Translations under genes and position numbers: made by a program
DNA from: a virus
Lineage: Duplodnaviria; Heunggongvirae; Uroviricota; Caudoviricetes
Strand: one strand, 5' to 3'
Virus record (IMG/VR): IMGVR_UViG_2534681762_000014
Length of the DNA stretch: 35,657 bases
Part shown: one piece after another, positions 23,235-27,856 of the stretch
How the letters are laid out: each line of letters begins with the position of its first letter
Numbering within the stretch: the stretch's first letter is position 1
Notes under the pieces: model-generated
Told to the model about the DNA's origin: nothing
Databases searched by the model: none
What the model saw: the letters and a program-made list of their open reading frames with translations, nothing else

Positions 23235-23838
23235 TTCGCGACTGCTGCCGACTGGCTCATCACCGCTTGAAGTTGCCGCCGCAAAAGCCTGTGCGGAAAT
23301 TGAAAAAACGCCGGTCAGTATTCGTGAGCTGTGGAACCCGGACACCTGCCCGGCAAATCTGCTGCCGTGGCTGGCGTGGTCATTTTCGGTTGACCGCTGG
23401 GATGATAAGTGGCCGGAAGCGACAAAACGCGCAGTTATCCGCGATGCGTATTTCATTCACTGCCATAAGGGCACTATAGGCGCAATCCGGCGTGTGGTGG
23501 AGCCGCTCGGCTATCTGATTGAGGTGAGGGAGTGGTGGCAGCTCAACGAGGAGCCGGGGACGTTCCGTATCGTTGTTGGTGTGCTTGAGCAGGGTATTAC
23601 CGAAGAAATGTATCAGGAGCTGGAGCGTCTTGTTGCTGATGCAAAACCGGCAAGCCGCCATCTGACGGGACTGGCTATCAGCTTAAGTACAACCGGCAAC
23701 ATTTTTGCCGGTGCGGGATGCTATCACGGCGACGCCATGACGGTTTATCCCTACACCCCGGAAGCCATTATTGTCGGAGGGGATTATTTCCCGGCCTCGG
23801 CCATTCATTTAATTGATAACCTGAGAGTAAACGCATGA
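23227..23838 (+). CDS. I: Baseplate/tail-fibre attachment protein I
   Basis: 203 aa; overlapping stop/start with J and H. Confidence 0.75.
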   Translation: MSDSRLLPTGSSPLEVAAAKACAEIEKTPVSIRELWNPDTCPANLLPWLAWSFSVDRWDDKWPEATKRAVIRDAYFIHCHKGTIGAIRRVVEPLGYLIEVREWWQLNEEPGTFRIVVGVLEQGITEEMYQELERLVADAKPASRHLTGLAISLSTTGNIFAGAGCYHGDAMTVYPYTPEAIIVGGDYFPASAIHLIDNLRVNA

Positions 23839-25034
23839 CAGTGAAATACTACGCCATTCTGACTAATCAGGGCGCAGCACGGCTGGCTAACGCGACGATG
23901 CTCGGCAGTAAGCTGAATCTGACGCAAATGGCCGTTGGTGATGCGAATGGTGTCTTGCCGACACCAGACCCGGCACAGACAAAACTGATTAACCAGAAAC
24001 GCATCGCGCCGCTGAATCTTCTGAGTGTTGACCCGAACAACCAGAGCCAGATTATTGCGGAGCAAATCATCCCTGAGAACGAGGGCGGATTCTGGATCCG
24101 TGAGATTGGGCTTTATGATGATGAAGGCGTACTCATTGCGGTGGCGAACTGCCCGGAAACGTACAAACCGCAGTTGCAGGAAGGCAGTGGTCGTACCCAG
24201 ACTATCCGCATGATTCTGGTTGTCACGAATACCGAAGCTATCACGCTGAAAATCGACCCGTCGGTGGTACTGGCGACCCGTAAATACGTGGATGATGAAG
24301 TCCTGGAATTAAGGCTGTATGTGGATGACCAGATGAGAAACCACATTGCCGCACAGGATCCTCATACCCAGTATGCGCAGAAACATAATCCGACATTTAC
24401 CGGAGAACCAAAAGCGCCGACGCCTGCCGCAGGAAATAACACCACGCGGATTGCGACCACTGAGTTTGTTCAGGCCGCTATTACCGCTCTGATTAACGGT
24501 GCGCCTGACACGCTGGACACACTGAAAGAAATTGCCGCGGCCATTAACAATGACCCGAAATTCAGCACCACCATTAACAATGCGCTGTCAGGTAAGCAGC
24601 CACTGGATGAGACGCTGACTCATTTGAGTGGAAAGGATGTTGCTGGTCTTCTCGCATACCTTCAATTGAAATCGGCCGCACAACGGGATGTGGGCACTGG
24701 CGCAAATCAAATCCCGGATATGAACTCTTTTCATATCTCAACGTCACAAACAGGATGGTGCAAATTTCCAAATGGACTAATTTTGCAGTGGGGAGTGACG
24801 ACAACGATATCTGCGTCTGGTAGTGTTTCTTATCCAATACCATTCCCTGGTGGTTGTTTATTTGTGGGTAAAAATACTTATAGTCCAGTGGCTGCAACAA
24901 CCGCTGTGTTTGAAATTGTTAATCCGTCTATGACTGGTTTCACTGCTGCAAACATCGGCAGTCTTACGCAAGGGTCTTCCACTTTTAATGCACCAACACC
25001 GTCAGGAATGGCGTTTTTTGCAATTGGATATTAA
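23835..25034 (+). CDS. H: Tail fibre protein H (constant N-terminal part plus currently joined variable tip), 399 aa
   Basis: N-terminus (MTVKYYAILTNQGAARLANA) is the conserved P2 fibre start; the tip begins inside the inverted repeat at 24661. Confidence 0.8.
   Translation: MTVKYYAILTNQGAARLANATMLGSKLNLTQMAVGDANGVLPTPDPAQTKLINQKRIAPLNLLSVDPNNQSQIIAEQIIPENEGGFWIREIGLYDDEGVLIAVANCPETYKPQLQEGSGRTQTIRMILVVTNTEAITLKIDPSVVLATRKYVDDEVLELRLYVDDQMRNHIAAQDPHTQYAQKHNPTFTGEPKAPTPAAGNNTTRIATTEFVQAAITALINGAPDTLDTLKEIAAAINNDPKFSTTINNALSGKQPLDETLTHLSGKDVAGLLAYLQLKSAAQRDVGTGANQIPDMNSFHISTSQTGWCKFPNGLILQWGVTTTISASGSVSYPIPFPGGCLFVGKNTYSPVAATTAVFEIVNPSMTGFTAANIGSLTQGSSTFNAPTPSGMAFFAIGY
24661..24723. repeat. 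Left inverted repeat of the invertible tail-fibre segment, containing the candidate invertase crossover site
   Basis: About 63 bp with roughly 85 percent identity to the reverse complement of 27133-27195; begins with the 10-bp palindrome TTCAATTGAA exactly where homology starts. Confidence 0.65.
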
Positions 25035-25036
25035 TC

Positions 25037-25468
25037 ATGAGCTATGTATACAGCGCTAAAAAAAACGCTTTCTATCCCGTCGAGTTGCAGGACAACTATG
25101 AGGCATCAGGAACGTGGCCTGCCGATGGGATAGAAGTTGGAGTGGATGTATTTAATATTTTTTCTCAGCTACCACCAGAAGGTAAACAGAGAATTCCTGA
25201 TAGCAATGGAATGCCTGCCTGGGGCGATATTCCGCCGCCCACTCATGATGAATTAGTTGCTGCGGCAACTGCCGAGAAACAGCATCGCATTGATGCTGCG
25301 AATGCATTCATGAGCAGCAGGCAATGGCCGGGAAAGGCCGCGATGGGGCGTCTGAGCGCTGCGGACAAAGTTCAGTATAATTTATGGCTGGATTATCTTG
25401 ATGCGCTGGAGGCAGTGGATACTGCCATCGCGCCGGATATCAACTGGCCTGCTCGCCCGGCTGAGTAG
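25037..25468 (+). CDS. G: Tail fibre assembly chaperone (gpG/Tfa), expressed orientation
   Basis: 143 aa; conserved C-terminal block (SSRQWPGKAA...QYNLWLDYLDALE) shared with the inverted copy at 26402-26830. Confidence 0.8.
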   Translation: MSYVYSAKKNAFYPVELQDNYEASGTWPADGIEVGVDVFNIFSQLPPEGKQRIPDSNGMPAWGDIPPPTHDELVAAATAEKQHRIDAANAFMSSRQWPGKAAMGRLSAADKVQYNLWLDYLDALEAVDTAIAPDINWPARPAE

Positions 25469-25544
25469 GTCACTCGATATCGGGGCTATAGAGATATCAA
25501 TCGCCTCCATTGCAGGCGTTACCAGATTTTAGCCAAATAAATAT

Positions 25545-25568
25545 CCTCCGGCATAGCCGGAGGTTTTT
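25545..25568 (+). terminator. Rho-independent terminator after tfa
   Basis: 8-bp stem CCTCCGGC/GCCGGAGG, 3-nt loop, followed by TTTTT. Confidence 0.6.
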
Positions 25569-25574
25569 CAAATG

Positions 25575-26282
25575 CGCCTATAAGGCTCTCTTACCAGCCG
25601 CGCCCTAACAGGCGCACACGATCTGACATTTGCATCCAACTTCGTTACTTACGGCCCGTAAACGGGCTGCCCGGATAGGGAATCGATAACTGCTCTCCCA
25701 TTTTATCCTCTTCAAGCTGGTGCTTTATGTAATCCTGTATCTTCGCCGTGTTCTTACCCACCGTATCGACGTAATACCCTCTGCACCAGAACTCCCTGTT
25801 CCTGTATTTGAATTTCAAATCACCAAACTGCTCGTAAAGCATCAGACTGCTTTTCCCTTTCAGATATCCCATAAAGCCGGGTACGCTCATTTTGGGCGGG
25901 ATCTCCACAAGCATATGGATATGATCTGCACAGCATTCAGCTTCCAGAATCCGTACACTTTTCCACTCACACAGCTTTCTCAAAATACAGCCTATTGCTC
26001 TACGCTTCTCTCTGTAGAACACCTGTCTTCGGTATTTTGGCGCAAATACTATGTGATATTTACAGTTCCATCGGGTGTGCGCTAAGCTCTTTTCGTTCCC
26101 CATTGGGACCCCCTTTTGATTTCTTGTTTGACACTTGCAGTTGCCAGACCGCAAGGTGTTTTAACAAATCAAAAGGGGTTTTAATAACTGGCTCAAAGCT
26201 GAAAGCTTTCCGGAACCCCCAGCCTAGCTGGGGGTTTTCTGTGCACAAAAAAGCCCCTGCATTTCTGCAGGGGCCTGATATC
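25575..26282 (-). mobile_element. IS200 (IS200/IS605 family), about 0.7 kb; boundaries approximate within some tens of bp
   Basis: Encodes IS200 TnpA; left-end region has two strong hairpins (26216-26234 and 26253-26274), the outer one preceded by A6 on the plus strand (a terminator on the tnpA strand), as described for IS200; no terminal inverted repeats expected. Confidence 0.75.
25645..26106 (-). CDS. tnpA: IS200 transposase TnpA (Y1 HUH type), about 153 aa
   Basis: Translation recognised as IS200 TnpA (MGNEKSLAHTRWNCKYHIVFAPKYRR...HIHMLVEIP...), with HUH motif HIH. Confidence 0.85.
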   Translation of the reverse strand, partial: PMGNEKSLAHTRWNCKYHIVFAPKYRRQVFYREKRRAIGCILRKLCEWKSVRILEAECCADHIHMLVEIPPKMSVPGFMGYLKGKSSLMLYEQFGDLKFKYRNREFWCRGYYVDTVGKNTAKIQDYIKHQLEEDKMGEQLSIPYPGSPFTGRK

Positions 26283-26358
26283 TGGTGCTGGCTGAATGGA
26301 ATCGAACCATCGTCTTTCCGCGTACAATGCGAAAGCTCTACCACTGAGCTAAACCAGC
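26283..26358 (-). tRNA. tRNA-like sequence, possible tRNA-Thr (anticodon UGU) variant or pseudogene, with encoded CCA
   Basis: Reverse complement reads GCTGGTT-TA-GCTCAGTGGTAGAGC-T-TTCGC-ATTGTAC-GCGGA-AAGAC-GATGG-TTCGATT-CCATT-C-AGCCAGC-A-CCA: canonical D-arm and T-loop, 7-bp acceptor stem, anticodon loop centred on TGT, but one extra nucleotide between the T-stem and acceptor stem. Confidence 0.45.
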
Positions 26359-26401
26359 AATGGTGCAGAATAATACCCGGATTCTGATAAAATGCAATAG
26401 C

Positions 26402-26830
26402 TTATTGTGGCTGAACAGGCCATTCGATATCAGGTGCAGTTGAAATGCCGAGAGCTTCCAGCGCATCGAGATAATCCAGCCACAGGTTATACTGCGCCAG
26501 CTCATCCCCCTTCAGTCTGCCAATAGCCGCTTTGCCCGGCCACTGCCTGCTGCTCATGTAATCGTTGGCCTGGCTAATCAACGCCTGTTTTTTAACGTCA
26601 GCTGCTGCAATGAGTTCTTTGCGTGTAGGTGGGGGCATATCCACCCATACTGGCATTCCATCGTCTGCTCCCAGAGCTTTTCCAGGTGGTGGTGACCCTG
26701 TAAATGTACTGACTATATCATCGCTGATATCAATCATATCAGACATGTCCCATCCCGCCGATTCATAAGACGACAGCCAGGATTTCGGGAAAAAGTTCAC
26801 AGTCGTTGCAGACCATTTATATCCGTTCAT
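26402..26830 (-). CDS. Alternative tail fibre assembly chaperone (Tfa'), inverted orientation
   Basis: 142 aa; same conserved C-terminal block as the tfa at 25037-25468, divergent N-terminus; convergent with it. Confidence 0.75.
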   Translation of the reverse strand: MNGYKWSATTVNFFPKSWLSSYESAGWDMSDMIDISDDIVSTFTGSPPPGKALGADDGMPVWVDMPPPTRKELIAAADVKKQALISQANDYMSSRQWPGKAAIGRLKGDELAQYNLWLDYLDALEALGISTAPDIEWPVQPQ

Positions 26831-26834
26831 TTAT

Positions 26835-27195
26835 TTAGCTCCCGAACGCCAGCCAGAATATTGTCATTGTACTGGCTGTATTCGTTGTGTATATGCTGAA
26901 TCGCGACGTGCTATCTACATTGACGTTGAAACTGACAGGTCCGGTTCCATAGAGGCCGGGGTTAACCAGAGCAGGAATCACACAGGAGCAACGGTTAGGA
27001 AACGGAACAGGAAAAAACACAGCGTTACCTGATGAACCACCGGTGATGTTTGGTGCATTTCCCCCATCAATACCATGCCATTTGGAAACCGGTAATAAAA
27101 TGCCATGGTTGTCGAACCGCCCGTAAAACTGCTCATATCCGGTATCTGATTCGCACCAGTACCCACGTCTCGTTGCGCGGCCGATTTCAATTGAA
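26835..27195 (-). pseudogene. Alternative tail-fibre variable tip (Hv'), frameshifted
   Basis: Minus strand encodes LKSAAQRDVGTGANQIPDMSSF..., homologous to the H tip, then changes frame (two ORFs, 26978-27235 and 26835-27020); segment length is out of phase with the H frame. Confidence 0.6.
27133..27195. repeat. Right inverted repeat of the invertible tail-fibre segment
   Basis: Reverse complement matches 24661-24723; the TTCAATTGAA palindrome is at 27186-27195. Confidence 0.65.
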
Positions 27196-27262
27196 CGTTT
27201 AAGAAAATGCAGAGATAACGGCTAACTGGCATCATCTCCGGTTTTTATTCAGGGGATCCATC

Positions 27263-27856
27263 ATGCTTATTGGCTATGTCCGCGTATCAACAAATGACCA
27301 GAATACGGAATTGCAGCGTAACGCGCTGGAGTGTGCAGGATGTGAGCTGATTTTTGAGGACAAAATCAGCGGCACGAAGTCCGACTGGCCGGGACTGAAA
27401 AAACTGCTCAGGACATTATCGGAGGGGGATACACTGGTAGTCTGGAAGCTGGACCGGCTGGGGCGTAGTATGCGGCATCTGGTCATTCTGGTTGAGGAGC
27501 TGCGCGAACGCGGCATTAATTTTCGCAGCCTGACGGATGCCATTGATACCAGCACGCCAATGGGGCGTTTTTTCTTTCATGTGATGGGTGCCCTGGCTGA
27601 AATGGAACGAGAACTCATTGTCGAGCGGACTCGCACCGGACTGGAAGCGGCCAGAGCTAAAGGTCGTATTGGTGGCAGACGTCCGAAGCTCACCGCGAGT
27701 GAGTGGGAACAGGCAGGACGGTTGCTGGCTGCGGGTGAATCACGTCAACGCGTGGTGCTGATTTTTGATATTGGCCTGTCCACGCTCTATAAAAAATTCC
27801 CCTCATCAGCGGCAAAGAATAAATTGTGTCATCCCTTAGCCAACCGGGACAAATAG
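27263..27856 (+). CDS. Serine recombinase, Din-family DNA invertase (Pin/Gin/Cin/Hin-like), 197 aa
   Basis: N-terminal catalytic domain with the active-site Ser in MLIGYVRVSTNDQ, the SMRHL and GRFFFHVMGALAEMERE blocks, and a C-terminal HTH; sits immediately outside the right inverted repeat. Confidence 0.9.
   Translation: MLIGYVRVSTNDQNTELQRNALECAGCELIFEDKISGTKSDWPGLKKLLRTLSEGDTLVVWKLDRLGRSMRHLVILVEELRERGINFRSLTDAIDTSTPMGRFFFHVMGALAEMERELIVERTRTGLEAARAKGRIGGRRPKLTASEWEQAGRLLAAGESRQRVVLIFDIGLSTLYKKFPSSAAKNKLCHPLANRDK

Follow-up and report, generated by a model that had tools for sequence, protein, structure and literature searches.

An IS200C element in the terminator T-tract of a native tRNA-Thr gene in the putative invertible tail-fibre segment of a P2-like prophage

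The tail-fibre switch region

The window (the whole stretch of 35,657 nucleotides that was analysed) comes from a P2-like prophage of E. coli Z1323PEC0014 and is 100% identical to NZ_CP148268.1. Its tail-fibre region contains two convergent modules (Table 1). In the expressed module, gene H joins a constant N-terminal part to the current variable C-terminus and is followed by the assembly gene tfa; RefSeq labels H as 'phage tail protein'. The silent module consists of the alternative fibre C-terminus Sv' and a second assembly gene, tfa'. A 1-nt deletion near 27062/27063 shifts the reading frame of Sv', as seen against intact colinear homologues in loci L005 and L103, and the Sv' region is identical in loci L002 to L004. 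A gene for a serine DNA invertase, which RefSeq labels 'recombinase family protein', adjoins the silent module.

The two inverted-repeat arms are 83 nt long and 81% complementary. A likeness to a cix-like left half-site can be seen, by eye only, in the outermost 26 bp of both arms. Neither arm contains the canonical AAACCNNGGTTT core (hix/gix), even with one mismatch allowed. The flipped orientation was not seen in the five instances that span both halves (the window, L002, L003, L004 and L101), a small sample in which all five share one orientation. The original prediction had placed the locus inside an invertible segment, and the inverted repeat and the adjoining invertase gene agree with that location in a segment that we call putative.

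In 75 of 78 related loci, the convergent tfa genes overlap by 20 to 29 bp and leave no spacer. Among these related loci, a 222-bp spacer between tfa and tfa' is found only where a tRNA gene is present. The tRNA gene of the window lies on the same strand as tfa', whose stop codon is 43 nt upstream of it. In the window, the spacer also holds an IS200 copy, so that both an IS and a tRNA lie between two convergent Caudo_TAP genes, as had been predicted. Both tnpA (IS200C) and the tRNA-Thr gene are already present in the RefSeq annotation of NZ_CP148268.1.

Table 1. Features of the tail-fibre region, with positions in the window
Feature	Coordinates	Strand	Basis or remark
Tail fibre gene H, expressed orientation	23835..25034	+	Pfam Phage_tail_fib (E=1e-62), Gp53-like_C
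Left inverted-repeat arm of putative invertible segment	24649..24731		Candidate 26-bp crossover 24649-24674, by eye
tfa, tail-fibre assembly gene, expressed cassette	25037..25468	+	Pfam Caudo_TAP, E=2e-31
IS200C insertion	25538..26248	-	711 bp; gap-free alignment to empty sites once removed
IS200C right-end hairpin, terminator-like on both strands	25545..25563		Terminator scan
tnpA, Y1 (HUH) transposase of IS200C	25645..26103	-	152 aa; Pfam and RefSeq
IS200 left-end region: terminator hairpin and tnpA 5'UTR stem-loop	26113..26236	-	Rfam RF01405
Predicted intrinsic terminator of tRNA and Sv'-tfa' module	26247..26276	-	Terminator scan; 11-bp stem 26251-26276, T-tract
tRNA-Thr, anticodon UGU, CCA encoded	26283..26358	-	ARAGORN, Rfam, fold, RefSeq annotation
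Promoter-like element upstream of tRNA	26370..26397	-	Read from sequence
tfa', tail-fibre assembly gene, silent cassette	26402..26830	-	Pfam Caudo_TAP, E=2e-27
Sv', alternative fibre C-terminus, silent cassette	26835..27235	-	Three-frame translation; frameshifted
Right inverted-repeat arm	27125..27207		Candidate crossover 27182-27207, by eye
Serine DNA invertase gene (Hin/Gin/Cin-like)	27263..27856	+	Resolvase (E=8e-50) and HTH_7 (E=7e-12); 197 aa

IS200C and its insertion site

The element is IS200C, a member of the IS200 group of the IS200/IS605 family. Judged by its sequence, it carries a single ORF, an intact tnpA. The tnpA reading frame (25645-26154) matches Pfam PF01797 Y1_Tnp (E=1e-36) over profile positions 2-121 of 121, and RefSeq names the CDS product WP_024221535.1 'IS200/IS605-like element IS200C family transposase'. 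The left end matches the full-length Rfam model RF01405 (STnc490) with 146.4 bits against a cut-off of 56 (E=3e-31). The left-end terminator hairpin (26214-26236) begins 11 nt from the mapped end and is equivalent to IS200 nt 12-34, the position of the left-end hairpin in the published anatomy of IS200 (PMC4513863). The right-end hairpin is kept in all 10 IS200C copies compared; it is followed by T5, which gives it a terminator-like appearance on the + strand in the terminator scan. The element has no terminal inverted repeats, and any target duplication does not exceed 0 to 2 bp.

IS200C DNA that is 98-100% identical occurs in 3095 of 5426 complete E. coli genomes, at roughly 10,750 places in all, which upholds the prediction of an IS200 copy in the spacer. 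Over 709 bp, the element is 99.7-100% identical to IS200C copies annotated in RefSeq, and it is 100% identical to copies in other strains. A Salmonella IS200 copy is 91.5% identical to it. The Z1323PEC0014 chromosome has IS200C in four places. Weak Rfam matches to Ysr202 (25497-25568), to Leu_leader and to STnc490 on the reverse strand lie far below the gathering scores and reflect terminator-like hairpins only.

The ends of the insertion were fixed by comparison with empty sites. We found five IS-free prophages with the identical tRNA-Thr(UGU) and terminator in the same place: L002 and L003 (E. coli 377323_2f and EC12), L004 (an IMG/VR contig), and L101 and L102 (metagenome contigs). Once 25538-26248 is removed, the window aligns to L002-L004 over 3311 bp free of gaps, with 99.76-99.79% identity. 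This comparison maps the right end of the IS to 25536-25538, instead of the predicted 25545, and the left end to 26246-26248. The range reflects a 2-nt TT ambiguity; a placement at 25536-26246 is equally good, as is a 709-bp core with a TT duplication.

The original prediction also had the IS directly abutting the tRNA, within a few bp of its CCA end. That part was wrong, because 34-36 bp separate the left end from the CCA end (26283), and this gap is filled by a terminator hairpin (26251-26276) and then a T-tract. The IS therefore sits in the T-tract of the tRNA's own terminator and not against the tRNA. The tRNA lies outside the IS and is native to the prophage, since the IS-free relatives carry the same tRNA and terminator at the same place. 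Comparison with the same prophage lacking IS200, which had been proposed as a check, thus leaves the tRNA as a neighbor of the IS and not a part of it. The insertion is seen in one of the six instances of the tRNA-bearing module.

The terminator hairpin of the tRNA has a predicted energy of -21.4 kcal/mol (z = -5.72), and none of 200 shuffled sequences folded as well. The terminator sequence at the empty sites is GGGGCTTTTTTTGGC. Its T-tract, the target of IS200C, has seven T's in the empty sites and six beside the IS here. We compared this target with nine other distinct IS200C sites (L085-L093; 10 with the window), which were picked from the match list and are not a full census. In all nine, the constant junction GTGCAC is immediately preceded by a GC hairpin and a T-rich run whose last letters are TT. 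At eight of them, an annotated, co-oriented upstream gene (dsbA, lom, uhpT, carB, osmE, pqqU, plaP or one hypothetical gene) ends just before the IS200C left end. The flanks of the nine copies are unrelated, and none of these copies has a tRNA beside it. At the nucleotide level, and from these 10 sites only, the junction reads as a T-run, then GTGCAC at one end of the element, and TTTA followed by TT at the other.

[quoted passage not shown] Literature searches on how IS200 chooses its targets yielded this 2025 preprint and nothing further. The terminator context at this locus looks like the normal target preference of IS200C, which has thus already been reported at the family level. The composition of the spacer had been called unexpected. 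This holds for a spacer that bears a tRNA; it does not hold for the IS, since every other IS200C copy examined adjoins a terminator.

The tRNA-Thr gene and its cassette

What had been described as a tRNA-like sequence is a real tRNA-Thr(UGU) gene. ARAGORN calls it as tRNA-Thr(tgt), Rfam RF00005 scores it at 56.4 bits against a cut-off of 29, a moderate score, and the cloverleaf is its minimum-energy fold. The gene belongs to a cassette composed of a promoter-like element, the cloverleaf and a terminator, of which three sequence variants were found. For two of the three, the lowest-energy fold is a cloverleaf. An atypical extra unpaired nucleotide, C65, separates the T stem of the window tRNA from its acceptor stem. 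This tRNA contains G1-C72, C2-G71, G35 and U36, which we take to be identity elements for E. coli ThrRS. The variants, three only, differ at pair 27:41, where the window has U-G, L100 has C-G and L103 has U-A. All keep a Thr anticodon, which is UGU or, in an Enterobacter prophage, CGU. Both of these Thr isoacceptors are minor in E. coli K-12, with one gene copy each.

The promoter-like element has a -35 hexamer TTGCAT (26397-26392), a 16-nt spacer and a -10 hexamer TATTAT (26375-26370) that ends 11 nt before the mature 5' end of the tRNA. The -35 is weak (3/6), and the element falls below the threshold of a consensus scanner. The layout TTGNNT-16-TATTAT recurs in the alignment of two divergent cassettes (L100 and L103), and all three genomic contexts retain both a promoter-like element and a terminator. 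The variants lie directly 3' of a tail-fibre chaperone gene: a Caudo_TAP gene in the window, a PF16778 gene in Enterobacter sp. Bisph1 and a tfa' homologue in L103. The tRNA is predicted to be expressed and charged.

The family is rare. The tRNA was found in three of 5426 complete E. coli genomes, and a search of the phage collection with the tRNA part gave no match. Among 185,579 GTDB species representatives, one matched the 3' half of the tRNA and none exactly matched the UGU anticodon arm. No tRNA was found in 80 IMG/VR loci that encode tfa' homologues, and a literature search on P2-like phages with tRNA genes inside invertible segments found nothing. Four large IMG/VR phages share a 24-mer with the 5' part of the tRNA, but their tRNAs are otherwise unrelated. 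The tRNA is genuine but rare, and it is the only part of the locus that is even mildly unusual.

We considered whether the tRNA supplies an ACA-rich linked cassette and rejected this idea, as ACA makes up four of 245 codons in Sv and tfa and seven of 239 in Sv' and tfa' (p=0.38). ACA is used at 9.8 codons per 1000 in the whole prophage versus 4.9 per 1000 in nine flanking host genes, some of them highly expressed, a difference too weak for the codon-supply idea.

Interpretation and comparison with known systems

We think it highly probable that the locus records a recent IS200C insertion at the terminator of a native phage tRNA module, that the proximity of the tRNA is incidental, and that the consequence is most likely none. 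In this scenario, IS200C, a common single-strand 'peel-and-paste' element of E. coli, would have transposed recently in one strain. It would have landed in the T-tract behind the intrinsic terminator hairpin that closes, on its 3' side, a phage module made up of the alternative tail-fibre C-terminus, the chaperone gene tfa' and the tRNA-Thr(UGU) gene. The tRNA, with its own promoter-like element and terminator, would be a rare native accessory gene ('moron') of a small P2-like prophage clade. The position of the IS at the tRNA terminator would reflect a habit of IS200C, which inserts just past a terminator hairpin and T-run in the same orientation as the gene that ends there, and the closeness to the tRNA would therefore be incidental. 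The insertion lies between two convergent transcription units and interrupts no gene, and with six T's the terminator still looks functional. We infer the target mechanism and the neutrality of the insertion, the latter from its position only. Nothing contradicts the structural account.

The tRNA could instead have arrived with IS200, either carried along as transduced flanking sequence or belonging to a composite element, and so be foreign to the phage. Such an origin would fit the short distance of 34-36 bp and the small number of E. coli genomes that have the tRNA. However, the five independent IS-free loci hold the identical tRNA and terminator, deletion of 711 bp restores a gap-free alignment, and the nine other IS200C copies have unrelated flanks that lack a tRNA. 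The empty sites refute this origin, to which we give practically no credence. A different question is whether the insertion matters to the phage. Its effect on the inverted genes, which the original prediction had raised, could only be a block of antisense read-through, because the IS lies between convergent units, beyond their 3' ends, and because no coding gene lies downstream of the IS and the terminator keeps six of its seven T's. Late-operon transcripts reading through from H-tfa would run antisense to the three genes of the silent side (tRNA, tfa' and Sv') and then enter the invertase gene; if the IS200C terminators blocked them, expression of the tRNA or the invertase would change. Several features are consistent with such a block: the right-end hairpin with T5 is terminator-like on the + strand, the left-end hairpin is a described bidirectional terminator (PMC4513863), the empty-site phages show only a weak 5-bp hairpin on the + strand after tfa, and the tRNA terminator lacks a T-run on that strand. 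We nevertheless regard a consequential insertion as unlikely. Its presence in one of six module instances fits a recent, unselected event, and the silent cassette is already a frameshifted pseudogene, so little is left to regulate. Furthermore, the invertase and the downstream tail genes would normally have promoters of their own, as in P2. The most likely effect of the insertion is none, or at most some extra insulation against antisense read-through.

The tRNA itself may be read in other ways. It might be a decayed relic, either a captured host tRNA fragment or an old attachment site, that has no role in the phage. The extra unpaired nucleotide, the great rarity of the family among species representatives and the similar ACA usage of the two fibre cassettes would all suit a relic. 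However, the cloverleaf that is the minimum-energy fold in two variants, the structure-preserving changes at pair 27:41, the change of anticodon to another Thr anticodon, the promoter-like and terminator elements kept in three contexts and the presumed ThrRS identity elements argue against a relic, to which we give only a small chance. Still less probable, in our estimate, is that a functional tRNA-Thr cassette travels with the tail-fibre and chaperone module and that inversion switches its state, which would couple the supply of a minor Thr isoacceptor to host range. In one state, the one seen here, the tRNA would lie antisense to the late fibre operon; in the other, it would be co-transcribed as the last gene at the 3' end of that operon. 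Under the same reading, the tRNA could alternatively serve as a replacement that resists a host anticodon nuclease, and the terminator-targeting IS200C would add insulation between the two states. If the tRNA is functional, its position in the invertible segment would be an unusual coupling of tRNA supply to a host-range switch.

We favor, then, a new site of a known IS that is probably neutral. The IS itself is of little importance: it is one more copy of an insertion sequence that is very common in E. coli, it lies in a typical position, and it was already annotated in RefSeq. The by-product of the analysis is a nucleotide-level description of the IS200C target, namely the T-tract after a terminator hairpin, with the element co-oriented with the terminated gene. 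This pattern fits the idea that terminators are safe landing sites that also silence the transposase. A further outcome is a rare tRNA-Thr family (UGU, CGU) of P2-like prophages, whose genes directly follow tail-fibre chaperone genes.

To our knowledge, P2-like phages normally lack tRNA genes. Phage tRNA morons are known from the tRNA clusters of T4/T5-like phages and the tRNA genes of Stx lambdoid prophages. The cassette resembles them in its predicted organization as a self-contained promoter-tRNA-terminator unit in a phage genome. It differs from those cases in that a P2-like phage carries one tRNA only, next to the 3' end of a tail-fibre chaperone gene and within a putative invertible segment.

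The segment is built like the Mu G/Gin, P1 C/Cin and e14 P/Pin systems and the P2-like invertase cassettes, such as that of phage pro483, with two convergent alternative fibre C-termini that each have their own tfa. As in those systems, the inverted repeats lie within the fibre gene and adjoin an invertase with Resolvase and HTH_7 domains. Where the right repeat meets the invertase gene, the sequence is 93-97% identical to the corresponding junction in P2-like phages whose invertases are annotated. In contrast to those invertible segments, this one has a tRNA cassette in its spacer and a frameshifted silent cassette, is seen in a single orientation and lacks the AAACCNNGGTTT core.

IS200C here agrees with IS200 of Salmonella and IS200C of E. 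coli, in the IS200/IS605 family, in having a lone Y1_Tnp tnpA within about 707-711 bp, a left-end terminator hairpin 11 nt inside the tip, a 5'UTR stem-loop of the kind that sequesters the RBS, a right-end hairpin and no terminal inverted repeats. Nothing of substance differs from the known elements, and only the insertion site is new. The left end directly follows a hairpin and T-run in the window and at the nine other sites, as in the general association of IS200/IS605 with terminators (bioRxiv 10.1101/2025.07.22.666184). This site stands apart from that general association in that its terminator is part of a module with a phage tRNA and tail-fibre genes.

Locus layout and identity of the IS and the tRNA

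The window is 100% identical by megablast to part of the chromosome of E. coli Z1323PEC0014 (NZ_CP148268.1), which came from a dog in South Korea. In the RefSeq annotation of that chromosome, a complete P2-like prophage adjoins pflB, and both an "IS200/IS605-like element IS200C family transposase" and a "tRNA-Thr" are annotated at the region of interest. The expressed fibre/chaperone cassette (H-tfa) and the silent alternative cassette (Sv'-tfa') are enclosed by an 83-nt inverted repeat whose arms are 81% complementary. Therefore, the IS and the tRNA lie inside the putative invertible segment, in agreement with the original prediction.

Features of the fibre region of the prophage
Feature	Coordinates	Strand
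Tail fibre gene H	23835-25034	+
Inverted repeat arms	24649-24731 / 27125-27207
tfa	25037-25468	+
Spacer hairpins with GATATC motifs	25492-25509 / 26266-26283
IS200C	between tfa and tRNA-Thr
Terminator hairpin of the tRNA	26251-26276	-
tRNA-Thr	26283-26358	-
tfa'	26402-26830	-
Sv', alternative fibre C-terminus	about 26835-27235	-
Serine invertase gene	27263-27856	+
Tail sheath gene	next after the serine invertase gene

The predicted IS200 copy is present. Its ORF encodes a Y1_Tnp domain (E=1e-36), and Rfam RF01405 (STnc490, the IS200 left-end and 5'UTR region) matches over the whole model with 146 bits at 26113-26236 on the minus strand. The IS DNA is 98-100% identical to IS200C copies found in 3095 of 5426 complete E. 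coli genomes, and IS200C occupies four places in the Z1323PEC0014 chromosome. In every testable respect the IS is IS200C.

The neighboring sequence, described earlier as tRNA-like, proved to be a genuine tRNA-Thr(UGU) gene with an encoded CCA, as called by ARAGORN. Its Rfam tRNA score is 56.4 bits (cut-off, 29), its minimum-energy fold is a clean cloverleaf, and it has the structure expected of a tRNA-Thr. Where the T stem adjoins the acceptor stem, one additional nucleotide is left unpaired, at tRNA position 65; Infernal reads it as a bulged U64. A promoter-like TTGCAT-16 nt-TATTAT element lies in the 43 nt that separate the tfa' stop codon from the tRNA and ends 11 nt before the mature tRNA 5' end. 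A consensus scanner did not call this element, because its -35 hexamer matches at only 3 of 6 positions. Within the native spacer of 222 bp, GATATC motifs frame two hairpins placed back to back: a weak one 3' of tfa on the plus strand, and the strong tRNA terminator on the minus strand.

Exact position of the IS and its target preference

With the tRNA and its tfa' flank as a query, we found two further complete E. coli genomes, 377323_2f (L002) and EC12 (L003), that carry the tRNA at 99.8% identity and have no IS. The IS-free arrangement is also present in the IMG/VR contig L004 and in the metagenome contigs L101 and L102. Therefore, the tRNA lies outside the IS and is native to the phage, which settles the question of its origin raised by the prediction. 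When 25538-26248 (711 bp) was removed, the window gave a gapless 3311-bp alignment to L002, L003, and L004 at 99.76-99.79% identity. The empty site, read on the tnpA/tRNA strand, is ...GCAGGGGC TTTTTTT GGCTAAAATC..., and the occupied site is ...GCAGGGGC TTTTTT GTGCACAGAAAACCCCC...(IS)...CCGGAGGATATTTA TTT GGCTAAAATC... Because the junction falls in a T-run, the IS ends carry a 2-nt ambiguity; 25538-26248, 25536-26246, and a 709-bp core with a TT duplication are equivalent placements. In Salmonella IS200 numbering, where the left-end hairpin is nt 12-34 (PMC4513863), nt 1 is set at window position 26247, within the mapped left-end range.

This empty-site comparison puts the IS left end 34-36 bp from the CCA end of the tRNA (26283), not within a few bp as had been claimed. 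The interval is a hairpin with an 11-bp stem, followed by a T-tract. The hairpin has a folding energy of -21.4 kcal/mol (z = -5.7), and none of 200 shuffled sequences was equally stable. The IS thus lies within the T-tract of the intrinsic terminator that belongs to the tRNA, and this terminator retains six of its seven T's.

We compared ten further IS200C copies, each with 150-bp flanks. One of them, L094, is a divergent frameshifted copy without a match to the left-end motif, and L087 and L089 represent a single site. A GC-rich hairpin and a T-rich run directly precede the left end at each of the nine distinct sites (L085-L093). The left junction TT|GTGCAC is constant across these sites, and TT invariably follows the right end ...GGATATTTA (right-end flank TTTA|TT). 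The constant TT at both junctions suggests a TT target or a 2-bp duplication. At 8 of the 9 sites, an annotated gene co-oriented with tnpA stops just short of the left end (dsbA, a lom-family gene, uhpT, carB, osmE, pqqU, plaP, and a hypothetical gene), and the hairpins are most simply read as the terminators of those genes. The IS200C in the window obeys the same rule, being co-oriented with the tRNA and placed after its terminator. A survey preprint likewise reports a strong excess of terminator-like sequences just upstream of ISs, greatest for IS200/IS605 (10.1101/2025.07.22.666184). The juxtaposition of IS and tRNA is then a by-product, because IS200C normally prefers terminators as its target. 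The preference could arise by targeting, if a T-rich target sequence directs the single-strand Y1 transposase to insert on its 3' side. It could also arise by persistence, if insertions at terminators survive because they do no harm and insulate tnpA against read-through.

A rare tRNA cassette

The tRNA was found in 3 of 5426 E. coli genomes, its 3' half matched 1 of 185,579 species representatives, and no tRNA was present in 80 IMG/VR loci encoding tfa' homologues (L005-L084). In 75 of the 78 loci of this set with a convergent tfa pair, the 3' ends overlap by 20-29 bp (exactly 29 bp in 74 of the 75) and leave no spacer. The 222-bp spacer occurs only in tRNA-bearing loci. Therefore, the unusual feature of the spacer is the tRNA cassette and not the IS. 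The claim of an unexpected spacer composition holds for the former and fails for the latter, which lies in its usual terminator target.

Two divergent relatives of the tRNA have other settings. In Enterobacter sp. Bisph1 (NZ_JXAG01000035.1, L100:377-452), a P2-like tail module contains a tRNA-Thr with a CGU anticodon immediately 3' to a PF16778 tail-assembly-chaperone gene. This tRNA adjoins an acyltransferase gene (Acyl_transf_3), possibly an O-antigen-modifying moron. A near-identical IMG/VR contig has the same CGU tRNA-Thr (L096:8652-8727). In the divergent metagenome relative L103, a UGU variant lies immediately 3' to homologues of tfa' and Sv', the latter intact. There, the tRNA-Thr(UGU) and terminator (L103:21-464, minus strand) are followed by a same-strand umuD/LexA-like ORF instead of a convergent tfa; therefore, the Sv'-tfa'-tRNA module also exists outside the invertible arrangement.

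The three tRNA variants have in common the extra nucleotide at the junction of the T and acceptor stems, a TTGNNT-16-TATTAT element, and a terminator hairpin with a T-run. Pair 27:41 is U-G, C-G, or U-A across them, and the anticodon remains Thr. Being only three, these variants give modest evidence that the sequence is under selection as a tRNA. The ACA codon is used 9.8 times per 1000 in the prophage versus 4.9 per 1000 in nine flanking host genes, and its use did not differ between the two fibre cassettes (p=0.38). Codon counts offer no clear reason for the tRNA. In L102, similarity to the window ends inside tfa' (L102:1137-1385 versus window 26247-26495); only the last 94 nt of tfa' (about 31 codons and the stop) are shared, and the remainder of the gene differs. 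The tRNA and the tfa' 3' end appear to behave as a recombination module. In the simplest account, the tRNA would belong to an Sv'-tfa'-tRNA-terminator module and would have been brought into the invertible segment with it.

Consequences of the insertion and state of the switch

No ORF is disrupted by the IS, which is flanked by the 3' ends of two convergent units. Transcripts on the tRNA strand meet the native terminator first and the IS200 left-end terminator second. Read-through from H-tfa on the plus strand now reaches the right-end hairpin and then T5, and empty-site phages have only a weak 5-bp hairpin on that strand. The IS200 left-end hairpin is described as a bidirectional terminator that protects tnpA from outside transcription (PMC4513863). 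The proposal that the IS may serve as an extra terminator is therefore reasonable in principle. Such an effect would be confined to antisense transcripts that read through into the tRNA, the silent fibre cassette, and perhaps the invertase gene. The insertion is most likely neutral; it is present in one of six module instances and is identical to copies elsewhere. The original prediction correctly observed two features that were already annotated; it was imprecise, and its interpretation was partly right. This is a known IS at a new insertion site, in its usual kind of target, and its novelty is low. Only the rare tfa-linked tRNA-Thr cassette inside the putative invertible segment merits further attention from specialists.

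Sv' carries a frameshift. The frame that enters from the repeat arm meets a stop after ...FPNGMVLMG, and the gp53-like C-terminal part is encoded in a different frame. DNA alignment to the intact colinear homologues in L005 and L103 places a 1-nt deletion at about 27062/27063, and L002-L004 share the frameshifted region without any difference. Orientation is the same in each of the five instances with both sides covered (the window, L002, L003, L004, and L101). The canonical hix/gix crossover core AAACCNNGGTTT is absent from the inverted-repeat arms, and the outermost 26 bp in both arms (24649-24674 and 27182-27207) are only loosely cix-like. Its anatomy is that of an invertible segment, and inversion is putative. 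The inverted state would yield a truncated fibre, and the switch may be biased or locked. All the components of a Din-type host-range switch are there; however, only one of the two orientations expected of such a switch was seen in this small sample.
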